NCBI GenBank assembly: GCA_031552145.1
Contig: JAVBMV010000007.1
Coordinates: 34,486-98,485, forward strand
Source of the DNA: Myxococcales bacterium
GTDB lineage: Bacteria; Myxococcota; Myxococcia; Myxococcales; UBA5297
DNA length: 64,000 nt
Reading direction: 5' to 3'
Shown: piece after piece, positions 9,547 through 63,174 of the stretch
Position numbering within the stretch: position 1 is the first letter of the stretch
Layout of the letters: the number at the start of each line of letters is the position of its first letter
Position numbers and translations under genes: made by a program
The notes under the pieces: generated by a model
The model's input: only the letters and a program-made list of their open reading frames with translations
Told to the model about the DNA's origin: nothing
Databases searched by the model: none

Positions 9547-9945
9547 ATGCGAACGTTGAAGATTGGCGAGGTCGCTCGCTTGGCAGGCGTCGGAATCGAC
9601 ACAGTCCGCTACTACGAGCGTCGCGGCCTTCTTCCGATGCCCGAGCGTCGGCCTTCAGGGTACCGGCTCTATCGTGAATCGAGCGTCGAACGGCTGAAGG
9701 CAGTGAAGGACCTTCAGGCGCTGGGCCTGACGTTGGACGAGATCGCGGGGCTCGTCGATGCTGTCGTCGATCGTGGCGCGGGGTGCCTCGAGGTCCAGGA
9801 GGAGCTCCAATCCGCTCTCGGGAGGGTTGAGACCAGGATCACGGCCCTTCAGGCAATCCGGAAGCAACTGAAGGCGGCGCTCGGGCGCTGCACGTCCGGC
9901 ACCTGCGACTTGGCCGATCGGGTGAAACGGTCCGCGCGGAGGTAG
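9547..9945 (+). CDS. MerR-family heavy-metal-responsive transcriptional regulator
   Basis: MRTLKIGEVARLAGVGIDTVRYYERRGLLPMPERRPSGYRLY... with C-terminal Cys residues (GAGCLEV, GRCTSGTCDL). It is divergent from the efflux operon. Confidence 0.9.
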   Translation: MRTLKIGEVARLAGVGIDTVRYYERRGLLPMPERRPSGYRLYRESSVERLKAVKDLQALGLTLDEIAGLVDAVVDRGAGCLEVQEELQSALGRVETRITALQAIRKQLKAALGRCTSGTCDLADRVKRSARR

Positions 9946-10097
9946 CACGCCCGGAGGTGTTGCCCGGCCCCCCAAGGGACGGCACACCTGGGAGTGGGGA
10001 CAGGCAGGACAACCGGGGGACAGATGCTCTGTCCCGCATCTTCCAAAGCAATTTCAGCCACTTAGATATAGGTCTCTTATGCAGGACAGCTTTTTGA

Positions 10098-10769
10098 AAG
10101 CAGGTCTACGAGGCAGTCTCTCGAGGGGTATACCGCCTCGTGTCGCTCGAGCCGCTCGCACACCCGGACCTCGTCACGGTGGCGAAGCGCGTCCCGCAGG
10201 GTGTGCTCTGTCTCATCTCGACGCTCTCGTTCCATGAACTGACGACGCAGGTGCCGCACATGACCGACATCGCGCTCGAGAACCTCGAGCGCGTTATCCG
10301 CGAGGTGTGCGCCGCCGATGTAGAGGCCGACGGCATGGAGTTCGATCCGGCCACAGTGAAGACCGAGCGCATCAAGGAGGACGCAGACTACGAGGGCGTG
10401 CGTGTCCGATTCGTCGGCCTGCTCGGCAAGGCGCGCGTCGCGATGCAGATCGATGTCGGGTTCGGCGATGTCATCACGCCGGGCGCGCAGGACATCACCT
10501 ATCCGGTGCTGCTCGACTTCCTCGCGCCCGCGCTCTCGGGATACCCCCGCGAGACTGTTGTCGCCGAGAAGTTTCAGGCGATGGTCTACCTGAGCACGCT
10601 GAACAGCCGCATGAAGGACTTCTACGACGTGTGGCTGCTCGCGAGGCAGTTCGCTTTTGATGGCGCACTGCTCGCAAAGGCCATCGCCGCCACCTTCGCA
10701 AACCGCGAGACCGCGATCGACGTCGCGCCGATCGCGTTCACCCCGAAGTTCACCGAGCAGCGTCTATAG
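10098..10769 (+). pseudogene. AbiEi antitoxin fragment fused in frame to the C-terminal part of an AbiEii/AbiGii nucleotidyltransferase toxin (deletion remnant)
   Basis: The reading frame gives ...RGVYRLVSLEPLAHPDLVTVAKRVPQGVLCLISTLSFHELTTQVPH (AbiEi-like). It runs directly into ...DGMEFDPATVKTERIKEDADYEGVRVRFVGLLGKARVAMQIDVGFGDVITPG...YPRETVVAEKFQAMVYLSTLNSRMKDFYDVWLL (AbiEii-like). The AbiEi N-terminal wHTH and the AbiEii N-terminal NTase motif are missing. Confidence 0.6.
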
Positions 10770-10823
10770 GTACGACGCGATGGGGGACTTGACGGCCTAG
10801 TACGAATGTCCTAGTCTGGCTTC

Positions 10824-11444
10824 ATGAGCTCTGTGACGAAGGACGAAATTCTCCAAGCAGCCCAGGCGCTCTTCCTGCAGAAGGGGCTCGAGAGCGTCGG
10901 GATGCGCGATATTTCTCAGGTGTTGGGGATCAGTGTTGGCAACCTGACCTACCATTTCAATAAGAAGGAAACGCTAATCGAAGAAGTCGTGACGCGCATG
11001 TTCGCCAGATATCAGCGCTTTCCCGCAGCATGCACCCTACAGACGCTGGACGAGTGGCTTGGGTTGCTCGAGAACCTGGTGGTGGAGAACGCGCTCTACT
11101 TTCGAGATTTTGCGCTTTTTGCCAGGCTGAGCGAGAAGGTGAGAGAGATCCAACTGTACGTCTGTAAGGACAACGACCGGTTTTGGGCGGAAACGTTTTC
11201 GCTGCTAATCGATGCCAAACTGGTGCAGCCAGAAGGTTTTCGGGGTCACCACCAACGCGTATGGCGAACACTGCACTTCATGAAGAATCACTGGGGCCAA
11301 CGCCAGGCTGCGGAGAAGAACCTTGGAGAGCCCCCTTCCAGTTATCGCATTGAGGCGTGGGCGTTGCTGTTCCCCCTTCTGACCGAGGAGGGGCAGGCCG
11401 TATACCTGAATAAAATCCGACGGCGAAAGAGAGGGCGGACATGA
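10824..11444 (+). CDS. TetR/AcrR-family transcriptional regulator
   Basis: ...KDEILQAAQALFLQKGLESVGMRDISQVLGISVGNLTYHFNKKETL... Confidence 0.9.
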   Translation: MSSVTKDEILQAAQALFLQKGLESVGMRDISQVLGISVGNLTYHFNKKETLIEEVVTRMFARYQRFPAACTLQTLDEWLGLLENLVVENALYFRDFALFARLSEKVREIQLYVCKDNDRFWAETFSLLIDAKLVQPEGFRGHHQRVWRTLHFMKNHWGQRQAAEKNLGEPPSSYRIEAWALLFPLLTEEGQAVYLNKIRRRKRGRT

Positions 11445-11917
11445 GCACCCCCATGAAGGAGGCCAGACGATTCTTTCCAGTTCCATTCGTGTTTGTTTTG
11501 ATCAGTCTGCTCGCGAGCTGCGTTGCTCATGAACAGCCCCATGCGCGGATCGAGAGGATGAATTATGAAAAGCTGGGTCCGCCGCTAGGGACGATCTCTC
11601 AAGCGGTCAGACATGGGAACGTCCTGTATGTCTCCGGAATGACAGCGCACGGTACCCCAGCACAGGGCAAAGGCATGGCTGAGCAGGCCTCAGAGGTATG
11701 GAAGAAAATTAGGATGATCGCGGAAGCTGAAGGCGCCGATCTGCGGTCTCTGGTCAAGGTGACGATGTTCGTTACAGACATGTCCCAAGCCTCGGTCCTA
11801 AGAGAAGAACTGCTTCGCCAATATGCTGGTCGGCCTCCTGCCAGTGCCTTGGTGGAGGTGAGCCGTCTGTTTTCGCCTGACGCTGTCGTGGAGATTGAGG
11901 CCATTTTTGGCCTATGA
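11441..11917 (+). CDS. RidA/YjgF/UK114-family protein with a lipoprotein signal
   Basis: It has an ATGA overlap with the tetR stop. The leader is ...FVFVLISLLASCVAHE. The body reads ...AVRHGNVLYVSGMTA...VKVTMFVTDM...ASALVEVSRL...VEIEAIF. Confidence 0.8.
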   Translation: MSTPMKEARRFFPVPFVFVLISLLASCVAHEQPHARIERMNYEKLGPPLGTISQAVRHGNVLYVSGMTAHGTPAQGKGMAEQASEVWKKIRMIAEAEGADLRSLVKVTMFVTDMSQASVLREELLRQYAGRPPASALVEVSRLFSPDAVVEIEAIFGL

Positions 11918-11938
11918 GCGCAGCAATAGGAGGAAGAC

Positions 11939-12721
11939 ATGATTCGATGGATTCTGTGTATCGCGCTGCTCGCCGCAGGGGTGTTGATCGGCGTACGGGC
12001 GTTTTGGACCTCCAGCAGCCTGGCCGTGGGGGCGCCGATTGTCGCGATGGAGCTCATCGAGATGCCCGCGCAGGACATTGACGGCTTTGTCGCGGACTGG
12101 AACAAGCACGCGGCGGTCATAAGGCAAGCTCCCGGCCATATTACCACGACGCTCTATCGGTCGTTGTTGGCGGGGGTTCGGTACCAGCTGATCCAGATCG
12201 CTCAATGGCAATCACTCGATGCATGGGCGAACTCGCAGGGAGAAAAGAGCGCGTCGACCGCGATCTATCGGCCCGCCGCATGGTCGACCAATACGTATGC
12301 GGATTTGGCTGCCCACGAGGCCCACGAGCGGCGCAAGCCATTGGAACGGGTTCAGAAGGATCCCGAGATTACGTTTCCCGAGTGGCCGTTTATGTTTATC
12401 AACCTGATGGAGATAAACCCATCAGAGGTCGATTCGTTCGTCTCGGACTGGCGGATACGCTCGAAGGTCATGGGCCAGATGCCGGCCGCCATGGGCTCTA
12501 CGCTGTATCGTTCGGTACATCCCGACCAGAGGTTCCAGATCGTGAACGTGAGTCAATGGCAGTCCTACGACGGGTTCATCGATGCAAATAACAACCCGGA
12601 CTACGCTGAGAAATTGGAATCCGACCTGGGGCATGTGCCCAGCATCAAGCTCCTGCGAGGATTCTATCGCCCCGTTGCCACTCAGACGCATACCTATGGA
12701 GACGCCCGTGAAGACAAATAG
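11939..12721 (+). CDS. Membrane-anchored protein with two ABM (dimeric alpha-beta barrel monooxygenase-like) domains
   Basis: It has the N-terminal hydrophobic MIRWILCIALLAAGVLIGV. Two similar modules follow: ...ELIEMPAQDIDGFVADWNKH...LIQIAQWQSLDAW and ...INLMEINPSEVDSFVSDWRIR...IVNVSQWQSYDGF. Confidence 0.65.
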   Translation: MIRWILCIALLAAGVLIGVRAFWTSSSLAVGAPIVAMELIEMPAQDIDGFVADWNKHAAVIRQAPGHITTTLYRSLLAGVRYQLIQIAQWQSLDAWANSQGEKSASTAIYRPAAWSTNTYADLAAHEAHERRKPLERVQKDPEITFPEWPFMFINLMEINPSEVDSFVSDWRIRSKVMGQMPAAMGSTLYRSVHPDQRFQIVNVSQWQSYDGFIDANNNPDYAEKLESDLGHVPSIKLLRGFYRPVATQTHTYGDAREDK

Positions 12722-13817
12722 TTCAGCCACGAGAGCCTTCGCCATCGCGCTGGTCGCCTTGGCCGGCGTCCCGCTGGCATGCCGACCCACTGAGTCGGGC
12801 AGGAGCCCCGAAAAGATGAAAATCATCACAGTCGAAGAGCATTTTCTCAATGCGACCATCACAGACGCGACTCGTGATGAGGTCGATAAGATCGCGCCCA
12901 GCCATGCCCGTGCATTCGTCGCGAACTTCGGCACCCGCCAGACGATGCAGCCGGGTCAGTTGACCGATATCGGAGCGGGAAGAATTGCGAGCATGGATGC
13001 AAATGGCATCGACGTGCAGATGCTATCGTACAACGCTCCAGCCACGGAGTTGCTGCCGTCGCCGCTCGCCGTGGAAATGGCCCGGCAGGCCAACGATCAG
13101 CTCGCTGCGGCGACCGTGGCCTACGCGGGCCGGTTCCTGGGATTCGCCAGTCTACCTCTGTCCGATCCCGAGGCAGCGGCGGCGGAATTGAAGAGATGTG
13201 TTCGGGAGTTGGGGTTCAAGGGTGGCATGATCAATGGGACGGCGCATGGGCGCTTTCTGGATGCCCCGGAGTTCGAGGTGCTCTTCGCTGCGGCTGCCGA
13301 GCTGGACGTCCCGCTCTATTTCCATCCATCGATCATCAACTCGCAGGTGCGGGAGGCCTATTACAATAACGCCGACCCCGCGTTCGCCGCGCGATTCGCT
13401 TCGGCGGGAATCGGCTGGCATCTCGAGGTGGGGATCCATGTGATGAGGCTGGTCTTCGCGGGCGTATTTGATCGCCACCCTGACCTGCAAATCATCCTGG
13501 GTCACTGGGGAGAGATGCTTCCGTATTACATGGATCGCATCAATACGTTCTTCCCAGCATCGGCGTCGCCCATGAAGAAGGACTTCAAGCATTACATGCT
13601 CAACAATATCTACATTACGCCTAGTGGCATGTTCAATTTGCCTCAGCTCCAGTTCGCCCTTCAGACCGTGGGGGCGGACCGGATTATGTATTCTGCCGAC
13701 TATCCTTACTATCCCAACGAAGGCGCGCGAGCGTTCTTGGAAAATGCGCCCATTAGTCAAGCTGACAAAGAAAAAATTGCCCATGGCAATGCGGAGAGAC
13801 TGTTCAAGCTGAAATAG
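12696..13817 (+). CDS. Amidohydrolase_2 (ACMSD/LigW-type decarboxylase/hydratase family) with a lipoprotein-like signal
   Basis: The internal ATG at 12696 gives METPVKTNSSATRAFAIALVALAGVPLACRP.... This is followed by KIITVEEHF..., ...LYFHPS..., ...ILGHWGEMLPY... and ...IMYSADYPY.... Confidence 0.8.
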   Translation: METPVKTNSSATRAFAIALVALAGVPLACRPTESGRSPEKMKIITVEEHFLNATITDATRDEVDKIAPSHARAFVANFGTRQTMQPGQLTDIGAGRIASMDANGIDVQMLSYNAPATELLPSPLAVEMARQANDQLAAATVAYAGRFLGFASLPLSDPEAAAAELKRCVRELGFKGGMINGTAHGRFLDAPEFEVLFAAAAELDVPLYFHPSIINSQVREAYYNNADPAFAARFASAGIGWHLEVGIHVMRLVFAGVFDRHPDLQIILGHWGEMLPYYMDRINTFFPASASPMKKDFKHYMLNNIYITPSGMFNLPQLQFALQTVGADRIMYSADYPYYPNEGARAFLENAPISQADKEKIAHGNAERLFKLK

Positions 13818-14049
13818 CAGCGCAGCGATTCAACAGGCAGCGAATCTCAAGGAGATGGCTATGAGACGGATGACACGAACGGTGGAGCGGGCGATGGGGT
13901 TCGGGTTGTTGAGCGTGGCACCTTCCCGCAAGCAGCGCACGCCCCAGCAGTCCAGGGGGTGGGCAAGAGCCCGAAGAAATAGAGTGATTGAGGTGCTCGT
14001 CCGTGCCGTCCGTGCTCGTCCTTGTAGTTGCTTCTACGGAGATTCCAAA

Positions 14050-14754
14050 ATGAAAGCTCAGACTTTTCTTGCCCTGATTCTTCTGTCGATCCTCTCCGCA
14101 TCGTGCGCCGGCAATTCGAACATAGTCGCCGACAACTCGATCTTGAAACGGCCCGTGGCCAACACCTCTCAGACCATCATCGAGAAAGCCAACGTCCGAG
14201 AGCTTATCGAGTTCGAGCGCTTCAGCCGTGACAGCGGACTCTGGGACGAGATGAAAGGCTGTTACGCCGACAACTCCCGCGTGAATATCTCCTGGTTTCA
14301 GGGGACCGGGCACGGGTTTGTCGATGCGACCGCGGCCTTGCAAGGCATGCCCTCTGCCCACAAAATCTACAGCACCGAGATTTGGCTCAATGGAGGGAAG
14401 GCGGTAGCTATCATGCAGGCCAACGTCCAGATGCGCTATGTGATCGACCGGATTCCGGTTGAGCTCAAGTCCGACGTCAAGTTGATCTTCCGCACGCAGA
14501 AGATCGATGGTCGATGGTACATCGTCCACTTCGAGTCCATCTACGAGAAGGACATGGTCGCGCCCATCTTCCCGACCAACGATCTCAACATCCCGGTGGA
14601 CGAGATCGCAAAGCTCCGTTCAAGCTACGGGAGCATGATCTATCTGGCCACGAAACACGGTATCAAGGTCGACGAGAACCTCGCCGGGACCGACAGGCCC
14701 GACTTGGTCGAGAAATTGTATCGGGCGACCAACGAGTGGTTCACGCAGGAGTAG
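14050..14754 (+). CDS. SnoaL/NTF2-like fold lipoprotein
   Basis: The ATG at 14050 follows ggag and gives MKAQTFLALILLSILSASCAGN... The body ...RELIEFERFSRDSGLWDEMKGCYADNSRVNISWFQG...GRWYIVHFESIYEKD... resembles SnoaL_4-type proteins. Confidence 0.6.
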   Translation: MKAQTFLALILLSILSASCAGNSNIVADNSILKRPVANTSQTIIEKANVRELIEFERFSRDSGLWDEMKGCYADNSRVNISWFQGTGHGFVDATAALQGMPSAHKIYSTEIWLNGGKAVAIMQANVQMRYVIDRIPVELKSDVKLIFRTQKIDGRWYIVHFESIYEKDMVAPIFPTNDLNIPVDEIAKLRSSYGSMIYLATKHGIKVDENLAGTDRPDLVEKLYRATNEWFTQE

Positions 14755-14763
14755 GGGGGCGAT

Positions 14764-15030
14764 ATGAGCTTGTCCGTGAGAGAGATGCTGCAGACGTCTG
14801 ACGAGCTGAAGAGGAATCTAGAGATCTCCGGCCTGTCAGATGCCGAGGTGCGAGCGGCCTTGGGGTTCACTCAGCAGAGGTACGAGAGATCGCTTACTCT
14901 TTCCAGCGTCCATGACCCGACCGACGTGTGGCGCCTGAGGGATTATCTGGAGAAACGGATTCTCGAGCAGGGTAGGAGGCCCCACCCCTACAGCAAGCTG
15001 ATCTCCAATATCTGGTACCGATACGACTGA
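14764..15030 (+). CDS. DUF2316-family small protein
   Basis: MSLSVREMLQTSDELKRNLEISGLSDAEV...DVWRLRDYLEKRILEQGRRPHPYSKL...W matches my recollection of the DUF2316 pattern. Confidence 0.55.
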   Translation: MSLSVREMLQTSDELKRNLEISGLSDAEVRAALGFTQQRYERSLTLSSVHDPTDVWRLRDYLEKRILEQGRRPHPYSKLISNIWYRYD

Positions 15031-15048
15031 GGACCCGGGAGCTTCCGT

Positions 15049-16083
15049 ATGTGCATGACTAAGAGGCTGCTGCTCGTGGCGCTGGCATTCATGATGCCAA
15101 CTGTCGGGCGCGCGCAGACTATTCTGAAATACACAGATCATGAGCCGTTGGGTGGAATGCGGACGCGCTTCATTCAAGACGTCCTTTTCCCAGCCATCGA
15201 AAAGGAGTCCAAGGGACGCCTGAAAGTCGACGCGCATTGGGATGGCGAGATCGGGACCGGATACCAGGCGCTCGGGAAGATTGGCAAGGAGCGCGCAGCC
15301 GACATGGGCATTGTTGTCCCAGAATATGCTCCCAAGGAACTCCCGCTGCAGCAGCTCTTCAAGAGCTTCCCGGTCGGCCCTGTCGAGAGCAAACAACTTT
15401 CGTTTTTCCGACGCGCCTATGCGGAGGTGGCCGCCTTTCCAGCCGAACTGGAGAAAGAAAACGTCGTACCGTTGTTTTTCGCCACGGGCTTCCCTGTGGC
15501 CTTCTTTAGCGCGCTGCCCCTCGACACCCTAAAAGACATCAAGGGCGAGACCTGGCGTTCGGCGAGCTTCTGGCATCAGGGCTTCTTGAAAAACGCCGGG
15601 GCCACGCCCGTGTCCATGCCCTGGGGAACGGAGACCTTCAATGCCCTGCGGGCCAAGACCTTGGACGGGCTCATGGTCAACGTAGACAGCGGGTATGCGC
15701 TCAAGGCCCATGAGCTCGCTCCGAATGTGCTTCTATCCAAGAGCCTGTGGCTGGGGCATGTGTACATTTTGGTGATGAATCGGGACACATGGGGTGGTCT
15801 GGCGAAGGAAGACCAGCAGGCCATCCAGCGCGCCGCGAAGAAAGCATACAAGGTTCTCGGTACCCTGATGGAGAGCAGCTGGAATACCCAGATCGAGGCG
15901 CTGAAGAATGGGGGCGCGAGGGTTCGGGTCTTGTCCCAGGGCGAGGTCACTCGGTGGGAGCGTGCCACGAAGTATCGAGAGCTACAGACGGCTTGGGTGA
16001 AAGAGCAGGAAGAGAAGGGGCTGAAGGGTGCCGCCGTGGCCCTGAAAAAGGTCAGGGAGCTTTTGAACAGCGCAATGAGGTAG
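15049..16083 (+). CDS. TRAP-transporter (DctP-like) periplasmic solute-binding protein, orphan (no DctQ/M nearby)
   Basis: It has the signal MCMTKRLLLVALAFMMPTVGRAQT. The body reads ...LKYTDHEPLGGMRTRFIQDVLFPAIEKESKGRLKVDAHWDGEIG.... Confidence 0.6.
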   Translation: MCMTKRLLLVALAFMMPTVGRAQTILKYTDHEPLGGMRTRFIQDVLFPAIEKESKGRLKVDAHWDGEIGTGYQALGKIGKERAADMGIVVPEYAPKELPLQQLFKSFPVGPVESKQLSFFRRAYAEVAAFPAELEKENVVPLFFATGFPVAFFSALPLDTLKDIKGETWRSASFWHQGFLKNAGATPVSMPWGTETFNALRAKTLDGLMVNVDSGYALKAHELAPNVLLSKSLWLGHVYILVMNRDTWGGLAKEDQQAIQRAAKKAYKVLGTLMESSWNTQIEALKNGGARVRVLSQGEVTRWERATKYRELQTAWVKEQEEKGLKGAAVALKKVRELLNSAMR

Positions 16084-16411
16084 TGTTCATGTTTGGAAAG
16101 GAGCCGTATACATGGATAAGAGAATCATGCTGATCACGGGGGAGACAGGGGGCTAGGATCCTTGTGGGGTCGGTGTCGAGCTGGGTTGCGGCCTTCTCAA
16201 AAGGCTCTCGCCCATGACCGATCCGAAGACGCGATGGAATTGGTGGTACTCCGTGACCCGATGAGTCGCGAACTGTTGCACCTCTGGAGAGAAACGCGCT
16301 GCTCTCGCGAGCCTCTTCACCTCGAACTCCTGGCCAATGACGAGCACAAATCCGTCGAGCACGGGCGAGACGACGGCGAGATGGCGTACAAAGCCTCGGG
16401 TGGGCTGTCGG

Positions 16412-16726
16412 TCAACGACAAAGCAGCGCCTCGCAGTGCCGGACAACCGCTTGCAAGACATCATCAGGGCAGCAGGGGTCGGCCACAAAGAACCAGTAGT
16501 CGCCAAATTGGTTATTGATGGTGAACTGGTGGCCCCGGAAGGTGAAGTCGATCCATGTTTCGGTCACATCATCCGAGAGAAATCCTGTGATGGCCACTCC
16601 GCCGAGACCCGCGATGTGGTCACGCATCCGGTCGAACGAAGCGGATTCAGGAAGCTCCACGAACTGTCGAGAGCCGCCGTGCGTCAGGTGATTGAGCATT
16701 GTCTGTGGCTTGGAGCGGGTAGCCAT
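16412..16726 (-). CDS. Hypothetical small cytoplasmic protein (immunity-protein-like context)
   Basis: The internal ATG at 16726 gives MATRSKPQTMLNHLTHGGSRQFVELPESASFDRMRDHIAGLGG...FTINNQFGDYWFFVADPCCPDD... Only 2 nt separate this start from the stop codon of the upstream gene (16729-16731). Confidence 0.5.
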   Translation of the reverse strand: MATRSKPQTMLNHLTHGGSRQFVELPESASFDRMRDHIAGLGGVAITGFLSDDVTETWIDFTFRGHQFTINNQFGDYWFFVADPCCPDDVLQAVVRHCEALLCR

Positions 16727-16728
16727 GC

Positions 16729-17055
16729 CTACTGATCCACGGTGAAGACCACTGCCCTCCCAACCTCGGCAGCACGTTGGACAAACGAGCCGATGTAGTC
16801 GTCGCCCTTGCAAAGGTGTTGCCCGCCAAGGATGGCGCGGTGGAGGGGCGCTTCGCCACCGTCCCCGCCGAGGATGGCGTCAGACAAGGCTCCGTGGATC
16901 GCCTCCCACGCCTGGTCCGTCTCGGAGACGAAAGGCTGTTCCCACGCCTCCTCGACCTCTTCGAGGATCTCCGTCGGATCGCCGTCGTATGGCACGGCGA
17001 GCAGGGCCGCAACGGTCTCGTCAGTAGTTGCGAAGAGGACGCCTCGGCAGCTCAT
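16729..17055 (-). CDS. DUF1877 (YfbM-like) family protein
   Basis: The ATG at 17055 gives MSCRGVLFATTDETVAALLAVP...ETDQAWEAIHGALSDAILGGDGGEAPLHRAILGGQHL.... This matches the D-K/Q-AW-x-x-H-x-x-L/GG pattern of DUF1877. Confidence 0.55.
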   Translation of the reverse strand: MSCRGVLFATTDETVAALLAVPYDGDPTEILEEVEEAWEQPFVSETDQAWEAIHGALSDAILGGDGGEAPLHRAILGGQHLCKGDDYIGSFVQRAAEVGRAVVFTVDQ

Positions 17056-17385
17056 GGGGCCAGTATGGCGGTGGCGCGGGGTTGCTGTCCATGGCGGCAC
17101 CCTCCATCCACTGCCGATGCCCGATGAGGCTCTGGGGTGGTCTTACGGCGGGGGTGTCGAGCGGGGCAGCGGGAAGTGCGCCGGGCTTGAAGAGGAGAGA
17201 CGTGGCCGGTATGAGGTTGGGGATGGACCGCACGCTCAAGGTCAATACCGTGAAGTGCAGAACTTACTCCTTCTTTCGCCAGGGCCGCGCGTACTTGCGT
17301 GGCGCCATCGGAAAGCTCCGGAACGGCGATGCTGCTCTGTGGAACACCTTCAGACAACTCTTTTCCTCTCACCCAGAGTGCCGCA

Positions 17386-17694
17386 ATGACTACGCCATTC
17401 TTTGAGGGGATAACTCAGCCCGGCGACGCCGACGCCGCCCACGTTCAGCAGAAGCCGCGACTCTCCGAGCTGGATGCCGCCGCACAGAAGGCGCTGATCG
17501 TCGCCCTATTCAACTTCTTCATCCTCTTGCTGCCCGCGCTCTGGTCCACTCTCTTGCTGATGCGAGTCTGGAAGCAGCCAGGGCGATTGAGTCGCCGAGG
17601 ACAGCGGTTCGCCTTCCTCGCGCTCACAATCGACCTCTTCGCCTTGGCCATCGCCGCGCTTTTTGTCTACGCGATGAGTGGTGGCGCCCATTAA
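17386..17694 (+). CDS. Small two-TM membrane protein, hypothetical
   Basis: The ATG at 17386 gives MTTPFFEGITQPGD...ALIVALFNFFILLLPALWSTLLLMRVW...FAFLALTIDLFALAIAALFVYAM. Confidence 0.45.
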   Translation: MTTPFFEGITQPGDADAAHVQQKPRLSELDAAAQKALIVALFNFFILLLPALWSTLLLMRVWKQPGRLSRRGQRFAFLALTIDLFALAIAALFVYAMSGGAH

Positions 17695-17895
17695 TTGATC
17701 GGCGTGCTCCGCAATCAGGGACTCGTGCGAACTGCGGCCAAGCTACGTTTTCTGATGGGGTAGTGGTCCCACCCATAGCCCCCACACCATCTGGCTCCAG
17801 AGCGGCCTGCGCGAAGAGCGCCCATCCGAATTTCTCCTGACGCCTGGAAAGGCGAACATACGGCGTCTCCGGAAGAGCTGCTCTTCGTCCTCGCG

Positions 17896-18111
17896 GAGGG
17901 CGCCTCCGCGCGTCTTCACGACCTCGATCCCGAGACCTACCTGCGAGATATCTTCCGCGTCTTGGCTCATTGGCCGAAGGACCGTTGCCTCGAACTCGCC
18001 CCCAAGTACTGGGCCGCTACCCGCGCTTGTCTCGACCACGACCAGCTCGCCAACGAGTACGGGCCGCTCTCGATCCCGGCGCCGCTCCTCGGTGCGCAAA
18101 CCGCCTCGTAA
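17896..18111 (+). pseudogene. IS66-family transposase, C-terminal remnant only
   Basis: My own translation gives ...GASARLHDLDPETYLRDIFRVLAHWPKDRCLELAPKYWAATRACL...PLLGAQTAS*. This matches the conserved IS66 C-terminal motif (L.g.dP..YLrdv...i..hp..r..eL.P..W). No upstream DDE domain is present. Confidence 0.6.
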
Positions 18112-18172
18112 CGCGCGGCGCAGCAGCGCCTGCCGTGCGGCTCGGAAGTGGACCTCTGTGCAGGGTGCGGGG
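18079..18172. repeat. Left copy of a 94-bp inverted repeat (IS66 3'-end sequence); partner at 22857-22950
   Basis: By my manual alignment, the reverse complement of 18079-18172 matches 22857-22950 at 88/94 positions. Confidence 0.85.
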
Positions 18173-18537
18173 TTCGCCATGTCGCCCACTTTCGGTGATC
18201 AGCTCTGCACTGGGTAGACGTGGCTCGTGCAGCGGATACATTACGCCAGAAGCCTGCCACCGCTCGCATCTGGTCTTTCGAGGCTCCACGGGGAGTCGCT
18301 GGAATTCCTATGAAGGATCAAGGGCTTGCGCCCTGAACTGGTCTTGCACCATCCGAACGGAGAGTCGCCAGATGCAGCATGGGCGAGGACGACACACGGA
18401 TCGCGGAGCCATCGCTCCACTCAATCCGCGGCCGCGCCTCTTGGCAGCTTTCTTGACGCGACGGGCGCCTCACGCACCCCGGCGTCACGCCCCTGGACAA
18501 CTTCTCGAGAGCAGTCTCCCATCTGCGGGCAAAAAAG

Positions 18538-18585
18538 AGGCCGCAATCTCGGGCTCTAACCTCTCGAAATTGCGGCCTTTTCTCT
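18538..18585 (-). terminator. Rho-independent terminator immediately 3' of the displaced tRNA-Pro fragment
   Basis: The minus strand reads AGGCCGCAAT-(21 nt loop)-ATTGCGGCCT followed by CTTTTTT. The stem is a perfect 10 bp. Confidence 0.6.
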
Positions 18586-18630
18586 AGTCAGGGAGACAGG
18601 ATTTGAACCAGCGACCCCTTGGACCCGAAC
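18586..18630 (-). repeat. Displaced 3' fragment of tRNA-Pro; island-distal att direct repeat
   Basis: agtcagggagacaggatttgaaccagcgaccccttggacccgaac matches 24197-24241 at 43/45 positions. That span covers the 3' 43 nt of the intact tRNA-Pro. Confidence 0.85.
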
Positions 18631-18821
18631 GCGCCCGAGAGGCTTGGGAAGGAGTGGCAGGGGATGGCACGGTTTCGCAAGCAGCGGATATTGCTGGGGA
18701 TGCGAAGCAGGAGAAGGCAACAGGAAGAGGCCGTGCCACGCGGTCCGAGGCAGGATTTGGTCCAACTGTGGTCCAAGGGTCGCGGGCGATCCGAGGGCTG
18801 AAGACGCTGCCGGAGCTGCTC

Positions 18822-18992
18822 TTGTCGGTGGGCGAGGTGGCCGAGTCGTTGGGACTGTGTCGGGCGACGGTGTACCGGCTTTGCGAGGACGGGGAGCTGA
18901 GGCACTCGCGAGTTGGAAATTCGATCCGGATCGCAGCGGCGGACGTGAGGACTCTCCTTGAGGAGAGCGGAAAGGGAGGTGGGCGAAAGTGA
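18822..18992 (+). CDS. Excisionase-family/HTH_17 DNA-binding protein (start uncertain; a TTG at 18822 is proposed)
   Basis: ...SVGEVAESLGLCRATVYRLCEDGELRHSRVGNSIRIAAADVRTLL... It lies at the island end next to the att repeat. Confidence 0.6.
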   Translation: MSVGEVAESLGLCRATVYRLCEDGELRHSRVGNSIRIAAADVRTLLEESGKGGGRK

Positions 18993-19202
18993 TGGGCTTG
19001 GGGTTGCGGGGATGGTAGAATCCGTCCCTGACGACGTTCTCGGAGGCATCTTGCTTTCGTTGGTACCACTACTCATGTCAACCCTGACCACTTGGCGCGC
19101 AGTGGCCAGTGAGCCGTCGACCACGCACTCGGCAGAGAGAGGCCGACTCGACCTCCTAGGCAACTCCCGGATTCTCCTGGGGTGCGGAGCCGGAGCCCTA
19201 AC

Positions 19203-19223
19203 GTCGAGGGGCTCGACTTTTTT
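19203..19223 (+). terminator. Short hairpin plus T6, about 85 nt upstream of the deaminase start codon
   Basis: GTCGAG-GGG-CTCGAC followed by TTTTTT. Confidence 0.4.
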
Positions 19224-19306
19224 CTCAAGTAATCTCACTGCTGGAGAAATTTTTGGCGACCGACATTTCGCCAAGGCATTGACTACACCGGAAAGGTATT
19301 CCCCCT

Positions 19307-20878
19307 ATGTCTGCTCTGCCTGCTAGTACTATCCAGTCTTCCCGGGATTCGAGAACGACAGTAAACGAATTTCGTTCAAATCTGTTAGTGATTGGGATGG
19401 TGGGTCCAATTGGAGCAGGCGTGACAACGACCGCGCAGGCCCTAAAGACGAGGCTGAGCAATCCGGAAATTGCCCCCGACTTTAAATTTGATGTTCAAGT
19501 CATCAAGGCGAGCGATTGTATAAGGGAGTGGGCGGGCGATATTGGCGATGACAATATGGGATCGGTGGAGCGTCGGATGCGGTTTCAGGCGCTCGGGAAT
19601 AAGATGCGTTCTAAGGACCCTGCTGCCTTGGCCGCTCGTTTGTTTCTGAGAATTCATGAGCCAATAGAGACGGCGCCAAGACGAGCGTACATTCTGGATT
19701 CTCTGAAGAACCCAATAGAGATAAATTTCCTTAGAACAATATTTGGCAGTTCCTTTTTTGTTGTCGGCGTCATGTGTGCCTCCGAGCGCATTGTAGAGCG
19801 ATTGAGCGCAAAGTTTGGCGAAGAGGAAAGAAAGCGAAAGGGCGGAAAGATCGTAAGTCGAGCGTCGATAGAAGAGCTGTGTGAGCGGGACGTAAAACCA
19901 CAAGATCCTAAGGCCAAGCATTCGCAGAGGATGGCAGATGCGTTGGAGTTATCCGACTATTTTATTGACAACTCCGTTGAGCATCAACCGAGAAACAGTC
20001 TGGGGCTCATAGCAGGTGCCGAGCTTGATCGGTTCTGCTCAATAATCAGAAACGAAGACATTAGACGCCCAACGGAATCAGAAAGCGCGATGCATGCAGC
20101 ATATTCCGCGAAACACCGTAGCTCCTGTCTGTCAAGACAGGTTGGAGCCGCGCTCATAAACTCAGATGGCGATATTGTTGCCACAGGGACGAACGAGGCC
20201 CCCTGTTCGACGGGCGGCGTGTATCGAGAGGGGCGAAATTGTTGCGTCAAAAACAAGTTTGGGAGGTGCTTCGAGCGAGGTGAGGGGCAATGTCAAAGCG
20301 AAAAAATGCGAGGTGAGATTATAAATGAAGCAATAGCAGGGCTCGAGCTACCAGAAGGCAGCTCGGTGGACGCCATTAAAACGGTGTTGAATGACAGTGG
20401 AATCAAAGCTCTTACGGAGTTTGGCAGGGCTGTTCATGCCGAAATGGATGCGGTGCTTTGCGCTGCTAGGCTAGGGGTTAAGACCGGCGGAACTCGCATG
20501 TATGTCACCACATTCCCATGCCATACCTGTGCTCGCCATATCGTTGCAGCTGGTGTTTGGGAGGTTCAGTACATTGAGCCGTATTCGAAAAGCAAAGCAT
20601 TGGAGCTTCACAGTGATGCAATTGTGTGTGGGTTAGATCGCCCAGCAGATCGAAAACAGGTGCTGTTTAGGCCATTTTCCGGTGTTGCTCCTAGGTTTTA
20701 CGAGCGCGCTTTCGCGTTGCAGGCTGGCATTAAAGACGAGTCCGGATATTACAAAATCCAAGAACCCGAATGGGGAGAGAAGTGGAACTCTTTGCTCAAT
20801 GTTGACCTTCCAACATTGCGCGATGAAATCGGAAGGTCTCTAAGGGGTTGCCAGGAAGAAGAGTCGAGGGAGTCATGA
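19307..20878 (+). CDS. P-loop-kinase-like / deoxycytidylate (CDA-fold) deaminase fusion, anti-phage dCTP deaminase (DcdV/DCD) type
   Basis: The N-terminus has the Gly-rich loop LLVIGMVGPIGAGVTTTA. The C-terminus has ...SSCLSRQVGAALINSDGDIVATGTNE..., the zinc ligand motifs ...RAVHAEMDAV... (HAE) and ...TTFPCHTCARHIV... (PCxxC). GC is low, about 45-50% by eye. Confidence 0.85.
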   Translation: MSALPASTIQSSRDSRTTVNEFRSNLLVIGMVGPIGAGVTTTAQALKTRLSNPEIAPDFKFDVQVIKASDCIREWAGDIGDDNMGSVERRMRFQALGNKMRSKDPAALAARLFLRIHEPIETAPRRAYILDSLKNPIEINFLRTIFGSSFFVVGVMCASERIVERLSAKFGEEERKRKGGKIVSRASIEELCERDVKPQDPKAKHSQRMADALELSDYFIDNSVEHQPRNSLGLIAGAELDRFCSIIRNEDIRRPTESESAMHAAYSAKHRSSCLSRQVGAALINSDGDIVATGTNEAPCSTGGVYREGRNCCVKNKFGRCFERGEGQCQSEKMRGEIINEAIAGLELPEGSSVDAIKTVLNDSGIKALTEFGRAVHAEMDAVLCAARLGVKTGGTRMYVTTFPCHTCARHIVAAGVWEVQYIEPYSKSKALELHSDAIVCGLDRPADRKQVLFRPFSGVAPRFYERAFALQAGIKDESGYYKIQEPEWGEKWNSLLNVDLPTLRDEIGRSLRGCQEEESRES

Positions 20879-21795
20879 GCCGGTCTCGAACAATATTTGA
20901 ACTGATTAATGGAGAAGGCGGGGTGAATCGTGAAGGCAAGAATACGATTCATTGCAAGCCTAGCCTTTTGGAGGAACGCGACGGCCTGGAAGTATCAGGG
21001 TCTTGTGTAGATGACTCGTCCTTCACGCTCCCCACTCCTGAGTCTGAGTCGCTGAGGAACAGTTCCCGTTCGCCATTTCCGAGGACCTCCGAAGTCACAT
21101 TGTCAGAGAAGGCCGCATGGTGCTCAGGGGGGGGGCTAAAAGCGCCGGAAGAATGCCCCTGGTCCAATGACCTCGTGACAATAGCCTCGGTGTCCGTGGA
21201 CGGCAATAGCCTACCTCCGCGATTTGGCAAAGACCTAAGTTTGGATCGCGCTTTGCCGCCAGGTGTTACAATGCTTCCTGTGCCTGCTCTAGCTCAACCA
21301 AAAGTTGCTCCTGAATTGAGGCAGGGGCATTTATTTCCTGAGTATTTTATAAACCGGGCGTGGGTTGTGTTTGCTCCCAGTATGCGTGGGCATGACATTT
21401 TTAGCCTGTTCGAGCGTGACGAGACTGCTCATGTGTTTGACGTTAGGGTGCTTCGACGATTTGATTTTGCTCCTTGGCGGAGGGAAAACTGGGAGAAGAT
21501 TTCCGAGGATTTCAAAATTAAATACTACGGCGTTGTGGGCAGAGAAAAGGCCCGCGATTGGAACGACCGATGGCTCCTGTCTCAAGAAGCAAGGGGGCTC
21601 TTGTCGAAATTGTTGAGCGATGTGAAGACAGCGCGATCTGTTGTGTTTTTGGTGGACGACCGCTATGACTTCAGGATTGCGAGGCTTCTTCTTCCCGGCG
21701 CGCTGCCTCCGCCCCCTCCTTTGTGCAGATGGGAGGTCCTGTCAGTTGAATCGCCCGAGGATTTGGAGCGCACCATGTCCTTGTATTTGCGATGA
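20875..21795 (+). CDS. Uncharacterised protein translationally coupled to the deaminase (S/P/E-rich N-terminal half plus a ~170-aa C-terminal domain)
   Basis: The ATG at 20875 overlaps the deaminase TGA (gtcATGAgc). An alternative TTG at 20848 would give a 31-nt overlap. The C-terminal domain reads ...FINRAWVVFAPSMRGHDIFSLFERDETAHVFDVRVLRRFDFAPWRRENWEKISEDFKIKYYGVVGREKARDW... I do not recognise a family. Confidence 0.6.
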   Translation: MSRSRTIFELINGEGGVNREGKNTIHCKPSLLEERDGLEVSGSCVDDSSFTLPTPESESLRNSSRSPFPRTSEVTLSEKAAWCSGGGLKAPEECPWSNDLVTIASVSVDGNSLPPRFGKDLSLDRALPPGVTMLPVPALAQPKVAPELRQGHLFPEYFINRAWVVFAPSMRGHDIFSLFERDETAHVFDVRVLRRFDFAPWRRENWEKISEDFKIKYYGVVGREKARDWNDRWLLSQEARGLLSKLLSDVKTARSVVFLVDDRYDFRIARLLLPGALPPPPPLCRWEVLSVESPEDLERTMSLYLR

Positions 21796-22024
21796 AAGCA
21801 CGATGCTTCTCCGCGTTGCTTTGCTATGTTGAATGGTTGAATCAAGTGGCGAGGTTTCGACGGAGAGCGCTGGCCGTTCTGGCCCGGTTGTCCTCGTCGC
21901 GGGAGTGGCGATCTCGGGGGATCACTAACCCGGGCCAAAGGACCTTGATGAGGTCCGATGGATGCGACGTTGACCGTAAATAACCACGGCCGATGGATCG
22001 AGACTCCTGTCAAAATGGTATTAG

Positions 22025-22684
22025 TCACGCAAATGTGTCGCATGTGGGGCAGTAGAAGTTCCCTCGATGTTTTGTCTTTAGCGGTGTTTTGCTCATTGGG
22101 CCACAGCAGTTGCTGCATCGGGGAGGCGGCAAATATCTGGACGTAAGGTTTCCGTCGTACGGCTTTGTATTTTCGCCTGCTTGTTTTGATGGGGCGGGCC
22201 CCTTCAGTAACGACGGAAGGATTTCGAGAAATTCATCACGTCGTTCGCTCCAACGCGCAGTGGGAAGCGGCTTCGGAACCGGCAGGCGCTCAGTGATAGC
22301 GTAGTGGAGGTCATCAAGACCACTGTTCGTCTCGATCTTTAATGCTTGCATGCCTGCGAGCACCGCTTTCATATTCGAATAACTTACTGGAGGAACGATT
22401 ACGGGGATGAAATCTTTCGATGCAAACCAGGCGCCCCCAAGCTCGCACATGCAGAATGGGCTTTGGTAAAAGTCGTCAGACACGAGTGCGAGGACGAGCG
22501 TGGAGTCCCCCAGAGTCTCCTTGATGTACGACTTGAAGTCCTTGCCCGGCGGGATCCCCTGTCCTTTCGTAGACGAGCAAAATATTTCGCTCGGGGGGAC
22601 GCCAATTCCGCCTTCCAGCAACTTGGTGAATTCGGTCACGAGACGTTTGTCTTCCGACGCGTGACTGATGAAGAGCTTCGCCAT
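22025..22684 (-). CDS. TIR-domain protein with a C-terminal CxxC...CxxC zinc ribbon
   Basis: The ATG at 22684 is preceded by AGGAGG and gives MAKLFISHASEDKRLV... ...DDFYQSPFCMCELGGAW... contains the conserved TIR Glu. The C-terminus reads ...RCSNCCGPMSK...FYCPTCDTFA. An extended -10 (TGATATGAT) lies at 22717-22725 on the minus strand. Confidence 0.8.
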   Translation of the reverse strand: MAKLFISHASEDKRLVTEFTKLLEGGIGVPPSEIFCSSTKGQGIPPGKDFKSYIKETLGDSTLVLALVSDDFYQSPFCMCELGGAWFASKDFIPVIVPPVSYSNMKAVLAGMQALKIETNSGLDDLHYAITERLPVPKPLPTARWSERRDEFLEILPSLLKGPAPSKQAGENTKPYDGNLTSRYLPPPRCSNCCGPMSKTPLKTKHRGNFYCPTCDTFA

Positions 22685-22856
22685 GTGGTCCTCCTGCAAT
22701 GAACGTTGGTCGCTCGATCATATCAGAACTAGGCAGCGCTTCGGGTCGGAATCGCACAGGGTACGCTCCTTGACCTGCCCCCAGGAAGAAGGTCCGTTGA
22801 AAATGTGAGAGACTGGGCTCCTAGAGGAGCCTGAGATGAAGAAGAGTCTGACCTGC

Positions 22857-22950
22857 CCCCGCACCCTGCACAGAGGTCCACCTTCGAGCCGCACGGCAGG
22901 CGCTGCTGCGCCGCGCGCTACGAGGCAATTTGCGCGCCGAGGAGCGGCGC
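22857..22950. repeat. Right copy of the 94-bp inverted repeat (IS66 3' end: last ~10 codons ...APLLGAQIAS* on the minus strand plus downstream sequence)
   Basis: Matches the reverse complement of 18079-18172 at 88/94 positions. Confidence 0.85.
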
Positions 22951-23041
22951 AGCGCCGCCCTGGTGTGACGTAGCCGTGCCCGAGAAGAATGGTGCTCGAT
23001 GACCGTCTCGACTGCGGCCTCTGAGTGCCGGGGCTAGCTCG

Positions 23042-24082
23042 TTACGGCTCCTCCTCCCTCTTCTTGGGGCGCTTCGACTCGATGCGCTTCACCTCAGCCT
23101 CGAAGTCGCTCTCGAACTCACGGTCCTGGCGCACGCGAAACTTGTCGTACTGCTCCTCGGCGAGGCGCTTGGCCACCTCCGCGGAGACCTTGCCGGCGTT
23201 CACGAGCACCTCGTACTCGTTGAACTGCAGGAACGCGTCCAGCTTCGCGACCCAGTTCGCCATCTTCATCGGGATCTGCCGCGCGGCCTGGTTCTCGGCG
23301 TAGTCGAGGTACATCGACACGATGCGCTCGAGCCCCTTGATCTCGCGCTCGATCAGGTAGTTCTTGGCGACGCTGACGTCGCTCTTGAGGATCTTCCCCT
23401 TGGGTGCGTTCTTCCACGTTGTGAGCCCCATCGAGGGCTTCTCGGCGTCAGCGCGCTCGGCGATCAGCTCCGCGGCGGTCTTGCCCGTGACCGCCCAGTG
23501 CAGCTTGTTCTGCACCGTCTTGAAGAACGTCTGCGTCGTCTCGGCCTGCTTGTCGTAGTCGACGCTGCACTGCTCGTAGATGTCGGTGATCTTCAGGTAG
23601 AACCGCCGCTCGCTGGCGCGGATCTCCCGGATCCGCTCGAGCAACTCGTCAAAGTAGTCCCTGCCGAAGCGCTTGTTCAGCTTGAGCCGCTCGTCGTCGA
23701 GGACGTAGCCCTTGACGATGAACTCGCGCAGTGTCTGGGTCGCCCATATGCGGAACTGGGTGGCCTGCGTGCTGTTGACGCGGTAGCCAACCGAGATGAT
23801 CGCGTCGAGATTGTAGAACTCGATCTCGCGCCTAACATCGCGATTTCCCTCGCGTTGAACCCTCCAAATTCTTTGGAGAGTTGCCTCCGGGTTCAGCTCC
23901 CCCGAGGCGTAGACCTCCTTCAGATGGTAGCTGACGGTGCGGATGTCGACGCCGAACAGCTCGGCCATGCGCCGCTGGTCGAGCCAGAAGGTCTCGGACT
24001 CGTAGAGCACCTCGACGCGCACGGCGTCATCGGCGGTGCGGTAGAGGATCAGCTCGCCTTCCTGCGAGGTCTGGTCGGTCAT
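23042..24082 (-). CDS. RhuM-family (virulence/Fic-related) protein
   Basis: The internal ATG at 24082 gives MTDQTSQEGELILYRTADDAVRVEVLYESETFWLDQRRMAELFGVDIRTVSYHLKEVY...NLDAIISVGYRVNSTQATQFRIWATQTLREFIVKGYVLDDERLK.... The longer track ORF reads through the tRNA and is not real. Confidence 0.85.
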   Translation of the reverse strand: MTDQTSQEGELILYRTADDAVRVEVLYESETFWLDQRRMAELFGVDIRTVSYHLKEVYASGELNPEATLQRIWRVQREGNRDVRREIEFYNLDAIISVGYRVNSTQATQFRIWATQTLREFIVKGYVLDDERLKLNKRFGRDYFDELLERIREIRASERRFYLKITDIYEQCSVDYDKQAETTQTFFKTVQNKLHWAVTGKTAAELIAERADAEKPSMGLTTWKNAPKGKILKSDVSVAKNYLIEREIKGLERIVSMYLDYAENQAARQIPMKMANWVAKLDAFLQFNEYEVLVNAGKVSAEVAKRLAEEQYDKFRVRQDREFESDFEAEVKRIESKRPKKREEEP

Positions 24083-24145
24083 ATCGTGCTCCGTGCGAGG
24101 CGCTGGTCCAGCCACCAGACGGCCACGGGATCGAAGGCGGTGGAC

Positions 24146-24192
24146 CGGACATAAAGAAAGCCCCCGAAATCCTGAATGATTTCGAGGGCTTC
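24146..24192 (-). terminator. Rho-independent terminator 3' of the intact tRNA-Pro
   Basis: The minus strand reads GAAGCCCTCGAAATC-ATTCAG-GATTTCGGGGGCTTTC followed by TTTAT. Confidence 0.6.
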
Positions 24193-24196
24193 CCTC

Positions 24197-24241
24197 AGTC
24201 GGGGAGACAGGATTTGAACCTGCGACCCCTTGGACCCGAAC
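24197..24241 (-). repeat. tRNA-proximal att direct repeat (within tRNA-Pro)
   Basis: Identical to 18586-18630 at 43/45 positions. Confidence 0.85.
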
Positions 24242-24272
24242 CAAGTGCTCTACCAGGCTGAGCCACTCCCCG
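24199..24272 (-). tRNA. tRNA-Pro (anticodon CGG), CCA not encoded
   Basis: The reverse complement folds as a cloverleaf: CGGGGAG-TG-GCTC-AGCCTGGTA-GAGC-A-CTTGG-TTCGGGT-CCAAG-GGGTC-GCAGG-TTCAAAT-CCTGT-CTCCCCG-A. Anticodon-loop positions 34-36 are CGG. Confidence 0.9.
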
Positions 24273-61059: not shown

Positions 61060-61303
61060 TGGCCGCCTCCACGATCACTTCGTTTCGAGTGATCTCATGC
61101 TTGGTTAATCAGTCGTCTAAGTAGGGGGTGTTGGATTGGGGAAAACAGGTCTAAGTGATTGAAATGGCTGAGTAAATGAGTTCACACGGCGATGTTTGGG
61201 GCGCTCCTCGGAGCTGTTCTCTGATCCGTTGTGTGCTTCTGGCGAACTGCTCTCCAGAGGATTCCACAGAGTTCGTCGGTCGGATCCGGTGGGTTTCCCA
61301 CAT

Positions 61304-62221: not shown

Positions 62222-62257
62222 AGCCTCTCGAGCTGCAGATTGACGTGAGGATGGGCG

Positions 62258-63073: not shown

Positions 63074-63158
63074 TTGCGCTTCCCTCTGGTGTCGACTCTC
63101 TCGAGTGAACGAGGCGTCTTCGTAGCACGGAGGGCTGACAGCGGCAAGGAGAGGGGCC

Positions 63159-63174
63159 TATTTCACGTGGAACA
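63159..63174. promoter_or_regulatory. parS site (ParB-binding centromere-like palindrome)
   Basis: TATTTCACGTGGAACA compared with the consensus TGTTTCACGTGAAACA gives 14/16. Confidence 0.7.

Follow-up and report, generated by a model that had tools for sequence, protein, structure and literature searches.

A 5.6-kb integrase-less island at tRNA-Pro(CGG) of an uncultured Myxococcales bacterium: a probable relic of an integrative defence element

Introduction

A tRNA-Pro(CGG) gene in the metagenome-assembled genome (MAG) of an uncultured Myxococcales bacterium forms one end of a genomic island of 5.6 kb, at the other end of which the 3' part of the same tRNA gene is repeated. Between these ends lie a helix-turn-helix (HTH) gene of the excisionase family, a dCTP deaminase-like gene with an overlapping orphan, a gene for a TIR-domain protein, the stub of an IS66-family insertion sequence (IS) and rhuM. 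The island was recognised in a 64-kb stretch of the MAG, hereafter the window, to which all coordinates refer; an earlier note on that stretch, which we call the original prediction, had interpreted it as an integrase-less insertion. Here we describe the features of the locus, compare them with related loci and known systems, and argue that the island is probably the decayed relic of an integrative defence element.

It is already known that islands insert at tRNA genes, that they decay into integrase-less relics flanked by attachment (att) sites and that tRNA hotspots carry defence cargo; dCTP deaminases, TIR effectors and RhuM are familiar too. The cis-mobilizable elements (CIMEs) of streptococci are decayed integrative and conjugative or integrative and mobilizable elements (ICEs and IMEs) that have kept attL and attR while losing the genes for integration and transfer (Guedon et al. 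2017, PMC5704250), and decay to att-flanked, integrase-less CIMEs is a described route (PMC5704250). RhuM-like genes, for their part, are associated with restriction-modification (R-M) loci (PMC3710099).

Results

A duplicated tRNA 3' end with a terminator at each copy

The sole tRNA gene of the window is the tRNA-Pro(CGG) called by ARAGORN (Table 1) and also, at 24199-24272 with 64 bits, by Rfam, which reports no other RNA family in the window. A repeat finder located a direct repeat of 45 nucleotides (nt), 43 of which are identical between 18586-18630 and 24197-24241; the right copy consists of the 3' 43 nt of the intact tRNA gene and the next 2 nt. A 39-nt core pattern, allowing up to three mismatches, matched the two repeat copies alone, and 0/100 dinucleotide-preserving shuffles contained a match. 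No third, weaker copy was found in the window by blastn with a word size of 7, and tandem islands, for which a degraded third att copy had been sought there, were rejected. Pairwise alignment gives the repeat sharp edges: identity sets in at G31, the final base of the 5' anticodon stem, and the anticodon loop, and stops 2 nt beyond the tRNA's 3' end, with unrelated sequence on either side of both copies. Such a start is as expected for the att sites of tyrosine integrases, identity from anticodon loop to 3' end being the geometry that Williams reportedly described in 2002 for integrase att sites in tRNA genes. The locus thus has the form of a tRNA island: an intact tRNA gene closes it on one side and a direct repeat of the gene's 3' part on the other, and the repeat runs from the anticodon loop through the 3' end, leaving the tRNA restored intact.

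The left copy receives no tRNA call from ARAGORN or Rfam and, taken together with the 35 nt upstream, folds no better than shuffled sequence (z -0.34). Its two mismatches lie at 18590 and 18610, one of them disrupting the T-stem. Seven loci from related MAGs (some of which represent one contig fetched twice) agree with the intact tRNA at both positions; hence, the two differences are derived changes in the displaced left fragment, and they would fit a piece of host sequence no longer under selection. The intact gene is identical at 75/75 positions in the relatives L005, L006, L009, L010 and L012.

Each repeat copy is followed by one strong terminator hairpin. A simple consensus terminator scan missed both, and folding with RNAfold was used instead: the left hairpin (18530-18590, reverse strand) has a free energy of -29.3 kcal/mol (z -5.8) and the right one (24140-24198, reverse strand) of -30.8 kcal/mol (z -5.7). 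The two differ in sequence. The left terminator, of the form GAAAAGGCCGCA...TGCGGCCT, resembles the tRNA-Pro terminators of the relatives L008/L013 and L006/L009/L034; the right one is unlike both the left terminator and those of the relatives. From this likeness we tentatively presume the left terminator to be the ancestral tRNA-Pro terminator, and the left copy the ancestral tRNA end, and propose that the right terminator was supplied by the element.

In the island-side arm beside the distal core, two core-like motifs precede the HTH gene, one direct (18747-18759, 12/13) and one inverted (18770-18786, 16/18), which were equalled by 3/500 and 2/500 shuffles respectively (approximately 0.5% each). 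They could be binding sites of a recombinase or of a recombination directionality factor (RDF), or the relic of an older att site. Arm-type repeats common to both island arms were not found beyond 8-mers. Both att cores are present, the distal one with two substitutions and the proximal one only about 50 nt from a gene stub, and the proximal arm-type sites may be gone.

Table 1. Features, modules and composition of the island and its surroundings (window positions; GC3, GC content at third codon positions).
Feature	Position	Strand	GC (%)	GC3	Basis
Left region	9.5-17.7 kb		59		
IS66-family remnant outside the island: last ~83 transposase codons (17860-18108) and IS end, terminus ~18172	17860-18172	+			Pfam, tblastn
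Immediate left flank			63.8		
Terminator hairpin and U-run after displaced tRNA fragment	18535-18585	-			RNAfold
Displaced 3' part of tRNA-Pro(CGG), distal att core (attR-like)	18586-18630	-			Repeat, pairwise alignment; without tRNA call
HTH module	18631-19000		64.3	0.77 (HTH gene)	
Island-side arm beside distal core	18631-18794	.			Two core-like motifs
Excisionase-family HTH gene (RDF-like)	18795-18992; start uncertain, within 18795-18825	+			Pfam HTH_17, TIGR01764
Low-GC defence core	19001-22856		52.8	0.51-0.63	
Divergent anti-phage dCTP deaminase (predicted)	19307-20878	+		0.51	PADLOC dCTPase, NF041025
306-amino-acid orphan	20875-21795	+			ORF; start overlaps deaminase stop (ATGA)
TIR-domain protein, SpbK-like	22025-22699	-			Pfam TIR_2 5.2e-11; PADLOC spbK 9e-31
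Truncated IS66-family end stub inside the island	22857-22950	-			Repeat match
rhuM module	22967-24140		62.9	0.93, host-like	
hsdR stub, first 15 codons (type I restriction)	22989-23033	-			tblastn
rhuM (RhuM family; PADLOC candidate PDC-S05)	23042-24082	-		0.93, host-like	Pfam 4.3e-114; PADLOC 3.4e-156
HNH-like gene stub, last 18 codons	24082-24135	-			tblastn
Terminator hairpin and U-run directly after intact tRNA	24146-24192	-			RNAfold
Intact tRNA-Pro(CGG); 24197-24241, proximal att core (attL-like)	24198-24272	-			ARAGORN, Rfam, repeat finder
Right-hand chromosome			68-69	0.86-0.94	

An excisionase-family gene and no recombinase

The HTH gene at the distal end matches Pfam HTH_17 (1.3e-14) and the family TIGR01764 'excise' (3.9e-13; 49.5 bits against a cut-off of 28.8), and would provide the excisionase expected of a tRNA island. 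No integrase gene lies beside the tRNA or elsewhere in the island. Pfam profiles for Phage_integrase, Resolvase and Recombinase matched none of the island's open reading frames (ORFs) of at least 90 amino acids, antisense frames included, and revealed no recombinase in six-frame translations of all non-coding stretches from 17390 to 24200; nor was one present among the approximately 50 predicted genes across the window. The 306-amino-acid orphan was considered as a hidden recombinase and rejected, having no family match and no mark of a recombinase. Remnants of a conjugation system or relaxase were not seen in the island, and there is no helper element in the window.

These observations largely uphold the original prediction. 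It had described the 45-bp repeat with 43 identities, which the repeat finder reproduces; had read the left copy as a displaced tRNA fragment, in keeping with its missing tRNA calls and poor fold; had assigned each copy a terminator of its own, both of which prove on folding to be real hairpins with U-runs; and had seen no integrase ORF in any frame, as the profile searches of ORFs and six-frame translations now confirm. Its overall view, that this is the footprint of integration into a tRNA 3' end, gains support from the geometry of the repeat, the derived changes in the left copy and the excisionase-family gene at the distal end, and no recombinase is present.

rhuM between the stubs of its former neighbours

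Metagenomic homologues of RhuM are 72-94% identical in amino acid sequence, and nucleotide homology to the loci L095 and L105 (87%) is confined to 22967-24137. The closest rhuM loci are intact operons of AAA-ATPase, HNH-like gene, rhuM and hsdR, the last encoding about 1007 amino acids; their arrangement fits the published association of RhuM with R-M loci (PMC3710099). In the island, both neighbours of rhuM are reduced to stubs. What remains of hsdR is recovered by tblastn as PRHSEAAVETVIEHH (93% to HsdR of L091, E 0.002) and is cut off some 20-40 nt before the inner IS66 stub. On the tRNA side, tblastn recovers FDPVAVWWLDQRLARSTI (89% to a 223-amino-acid protein of L095, E 2e-6), the end of the HNH-like gene that lies ahead of rhuM in related loci, with a deletion junction at approximately 24136-24145. 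Given stubs on both sides, rhuM appears as the survivor of a defence operon truncated at both ends. The tRNA-side junction, where the HNH stub ends, lies about 10 nt from the right terminator, which follows the intact tRNA. This is the usual position of an integrase gene: among integrase genes adjoining tRNA genes, one survey placed more than 92% downstream of the tRNA (shapes STI, 736, and OC, 438; PMC2951348).

We considered whether rhuM might form a defined cassette whose ends are fixed, and rejected this, since the HNH stub motif precedes rhuM in only 2/73 loci and the repeats seen elsewhere are duplicated ends of hsdR or helicase genes, of varying length and 76-94% identity. Long imperfect direct duplications of a neighbouring gene often flank rhuM in L099, L100, L106, L109, L118, L139 and L149, measuring 45-289 nt at 76-94% identity in the metagenomic loci L100, L106, L118, L139 and L149. 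The hsdR 5' end, for example, is duplicated over 284-289 nt (81-88% identity), which leaves an HsdR N-terminal stub of about 102-134 amino acids upstream of rhuM; another example is a duplication of 109 nt from the 3' end of a helicase gene. These duplications look like homology-driven shuffling within R-M loci rather than att sites.

Low-GC cargo, IS66 remnants and mosaic composition

The deaminase combines a P-loop kinase-like N-terminus with a zinc deaminase domain. It matches PADLOC dCTPase (1.5e-139) and reaches 375.6 bits against NCBIfam NF041025, under the equivalog cut-off of 400, while its nearest non-self homologue is 40-42% identical; we regard it as a divergent member of the dCTP deaminase family, with the predicted function of that family. 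The overlapping 306-amino-acid orphan is probably co-translated with it. This orphan has no match in Pfam, PADLOC or NCBIfam and only four weak non-self matches among 1.8 billion representatives, these few unannotated relatives (about 130-180 amino acids) aligning with its C-terminal ~150 residues only. A single-sequence AlphaFold2 model was unusable (predicted local distance difference test score, pLDDT, 39.7), and the impression of a DUF488-like C-terminal half was not confirmed by Pfam. Deaminase and orphan (19307-21795) may constitute a two-gene variant of the dCTP deaminase system. Of the genes listed in the original prediction, the HTH, TIR and rhuM genes and the IS66-end remnant stand, and its 'deaminase pair' becomes one deaminase and an orphan to which Pfam, PADLOC and NCBIfam assign no family.

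The IS66-family remnant outside the island scores 28.6 bits (E 1.6e-6) against Pfam DDE_Tnp_IS66_C, under the 30-bit cut-off, and by tblastn matches a Sandaracinus plasmid transposase at 65% (E 4e-20) and the transposase of the IS66-like ISEc23 at 37.5% (E 8e-5). The inner stub is an inverted match to 18079-18172, 94% identical over 94 nt, and sits where the low-GC core gives way to the rhuM module; the IS terminus was placed where the two stub copies stop matching. The window contains 3'-end stubs only, with no intact IS66 copy or intact transposase. Logan short-read contigs (SRR23967707, SRR23967709) break at or near both stubs, and L001 reads through the inner one; otherwise the contigs are colinear with the integrated form of the island and show no alternative junctions.

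At 56.1% GC the island as a whole deviates in composition, as a tRNA island would, its HTH and rhuM modules being host-like. The core lies 11-16 points below the flanks when computed, a smaller drop than the 20 or so that the original prediction had estimated. The island is a mosaic of three modules of differing composition and not one clean element.

The tRNA-Pro(CGG) site in relatives

The PBP4-like gene adjacent to the tRNA has its nearest relatives at only about 52-55% identity. An earlier scan with this PBP4 flank found nothing, and a profile-based scan returned 80 loci. Only six species-representative loci, some of them also present as duplicates, have tRNA-Pro(CGG) upstream of PBP4, and none of the six contains a repeat or homology to the window's left flank. 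In the more distant relatives L014 and L034 the tRNA is followed directly by housekeeping genes (a FapA-like gene and pyrF, respectively), which implies that the site can be unoccupied. Elsewhere it is followed by a SNF2-type helicase (L006/L009 and L010), by defence-like HNH/AAA genes (L005) or by caspase/WD40 genes (L008). Searches for a sibling island with the 65-amino-acid HTH query returned nothing, those with the deaminase no homologue above 42% identity, and megablast against plasmids and phages gave matches to tRNA genes only.

The adjacency of tRNA-Pro(CGG) and PBP4 is itself confined to the window's nearest relatives. In some 70 loci from Myxococcaceae and Archangiaceae (L015-L088), the 10 kb upstream of PBP4's orthologue contain no tRNA.

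Discussion

We favour, with a probability of roughly 0.68, the interpretation that the island is what decay has left of an integrative defence element, inserted by recombination of the tyrosine-integrase type into the segment of tRNA-Pro(CGG) that extends from the anticodon loop to the 3' end. The incoming element would have brought with it a new 3' half for the tRNA and a terminator (24146-24241), so displacing the host's original 3' half and terminator by 5.6 kb (18535-18630), and its excisionase-like gene would survive at the distal end. An integrase gene directly downstream of the tRNA would subsequently have been lost by deletion along with the proximal arm, an event that would also have removed most of the AAA/HNH operon and spared only its final 18 codons ahead of rhuM. 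Another deletion, linked to an IS66-family insertion, would have removed hsdR after codon 15, and the low-GC block comprising the dCTP deaminase, its partner and TIR would be a separately acquired module. We infer from these remains that an integrase made the repeat and sat on the tRNA-proximal side, as we do the order of events and the present immobility. The island is most likely immobile because its distal core is mutated and its proximal arm almost gone; the term 'immobilised' in the original prediction is further backed by the stubs flanking rhuM and by the tRNA-side junction at the expected integrase position. Judged from its sequence, the island probably now acts only as a set of anti-phage genes.

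Several known systems resemble the island in part. With att cores at both ends and its recombinase apparently gone, it is CIME-like and would fit the definition of a CIME: in both cases direct repeats include the 3' end of the target gene (here a tRNA), integration genes are lacking (here, no recombinase in ORFs or six-frame translations), the interpretation is decay of an integrated element and accessory cargo remains. CIMEs differ in their derivation from ICEs or IMEs; the island has no relaxase or conjugation remnants, its tRNA-side arms are apparently deleted and its host is a myxobacterial MAG. KplE1 (CPS-53) at argW of Escherichia coli is likewise a small tRNA-associated remnant (10 kb) with a duplicated core and an RDF of the excisionase family, TorI (Panis et al. 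2010, PMC2951348). Its intS gene lies immediately downstream of the tRNA and overlaps attL, the same layout that we suppose for the island, where the position of the integrase is now a deletion junction (PMC2951348). Unlike the island, KplE1 has kept intS, still excises and has a core of 16 nt, compared to an integrase-less locus with a 45-nt core beginning at the anticodon loop. The torI gene presumably lies at the opposite, attR-side end of KplE1.

The cargo, too, has precedents. RhuM-like genes occur in R-M and defence operons, RhuM being a predicted toxin or defence component linked to type I R-M genes (Anantharaman et al. 2013, PMC3710099). In contrast to such embedded loci, the R-M partners here are reduced to stubs of 15 and 18 codons. 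Salmonella SPI-3 at tRNA-selC, which we take to be where rhuM was named, presumably offers another case in which rhuM, near a tRNA, borders a mosaic island. A parallel in layout is L140 (metagenome contig Ga0302320_10003503, 9658-11225), in which tRNA-Arg(TCT) is followed by rhuM in the same orientation and by a repeat of 39-45 nt from the anticodon loop, with no integrase, and in which FabF, MutS-like and other housekeeping genes resume directly after the repeat. L140 differs in its size (1.49 kb), its single gene and its tRNA; its rhuM product is 76% identical in amino acid sequence, and it lacks the HTH gene, IS stub and low-GC cargo. In L133, tRNA-Asn lies directly upstream of rhuM, and no repeat was found within 12 kb. 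Finally, the anti-phage dCTP deaminases (NF041025) share with the island gene the kinase-like N-terminus and the zinc deaminase, and its PADLOC match is strong, whereas coupling to a 306-amino-acid orphan is not seen with other members.

Other origins must be weighed against the favoured one. The island might never have had an integrase, being instead a mini-island mobilised in trans, either a satellite or an accreted CIME, with att sites served by an integrase that is encoded elsewhere in the genome or on a helper element. Several observations agree with this: neither the island nor the whole 64-kb window encodes a recombinase, the RDF-like gene has been kept, L140 is a clean rhuM-only islet with its repeat at tRNA-Arg and housekeeping genes right after, and mobilisation of CIMEs in cis by an incoming element has been documented (PMC5704250). 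We nevertheless consider it unlikely, since the truncated stubs flanking rhuM suggest content shaped by deletions and no designed minimal element, since the ~50 nt between proximal core and stub, taken up by the terminator, leave scant room for arm-type sites, and since the two substitutions in the distal core speak against recent recombination. A further reading, in which rhuM-led integrase-less islets with tRNA repeats from anticodon loop to 3' end (the present island at tRNA-Pro and L140 at tRNA-Arg, with the tRNA-Asn and rhuM of L133 besides) are recurrent minimal defence cassettes and not separate products of decay, carried from one tRNA gene to another by trans integrases or by an unrecognised activity linked to the cassette, seems to us improbable.

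Site-specific recombination could be dispensed with altogether if a circular fragment of a related donor, bearing the 3' half of tRNA-Pro, had entered by a single RecA-type, Campbell-like crossover. A repeat of 45 nt is a poor RecA substrate, however, and homology on a donor ought to leave any part, or the whole, of the 75-nt gene duplicated, when in fact identity stops at the anticodon loop, as it does in L140; the excisionase-family gene beside the distal core would also be left unexplained. We regard such a crossover as improbable, even though a tRNA identical at 100% across distant relatives offers a portable patch of homology, rhuM is elsewhere bracketed by long imperfect duplications (L100, L106, L118, L139, L149) and no integrase is present. 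Least credible, and very improbable, is that a 4.7-kb IS66 composite transposon (18173-22856) carried in the tRNA fragment and that its repetition of the resident tRNA is incidental. The segment with the left repeat, HTH gene and low-GC core does lie exactly between two inverted right-end stubs, and an IS end coincides with the right boundary of that core. To land 1.3 kb from a matching tRNA, in direct orientation and with its terminator outward, would be an extreme coincidence; moreover, the stubs are only 94% identical and both truncated, the window has no intact transposase, no target-site duplication was identified, and the left terminator resembles the native tRNA-Pro terminators of relatives.

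Origin as a decayed integrative element is not free of difficulties of its own. No fragment of an integrase survives in the island searches, so that its former presence is something we infer outright, and neither an empty site nor an integrase-bearing sibling island was found, the nearest genomes sharing nothing downstream of the tRNA. A deletion ending within about 10 nt of the terminator yet sparing it is a coincidence in need of explanation. The likeness between the left terminator and those of relatives is short and could be generic. Furthermore, the integrase-less rhuM islet of L140 at tRNA-Arg indicates that the configuration recurs, which makes a systematic integrase-free or trans-acting route possible.

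No new mobility mechanism is revealed by the island. Its interest lies in being a well-delimited example of anti-phage genes gathered, then fixed, at a tRNA hotspot in the Myxococcota, where few integrative elements have been characterised, and in a lineage of which sampling is poor. Insertion scars, RDF gene, IS damage and gene stubs are still legible, which allows the order of decay to be reconstructed. The locus also points to tRNA-Pro(CGG) as a site of integration in this lineage, although the practical value is modest, and gives a bounded context to the divergent deaminase and its orphan partner, of possible interest to researchers of defence systems.

The surroundings of the island are themselves varied. 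To its left, 9547-17700 is also atypical (59% GC) and includes a MerR gene, an AbiEi/AbiEii gene that seems to be fused or truncated (10140-10769) and a cluster of TetR, RidA, ABM, amidohydrolase, SnoaL and DctP genes; 9.5-24.2 kb may as a whole represent a variable region of older date that lies downstream of tRNA-Pro. Further defence-like genes occur in the chromosomal part (36532-38328, 48264-51971 and 52769-53953), namely a pair of Schlafen AlbA_2 + HATPase_c_4 paralogues, of which the second lies within a local dip in GC at 53-54 kb, and a helicase-nuclease of 1235 amino acids with the domains DUF4011, AAA_11, AAA_12 and MTES_1575. At 59950-63994 on the reverse strand, dnaN, parB, parA and rsmG (gidB) stand together at a lower GC content (56-64%), and the window is probably near the chromosomal replication origin.

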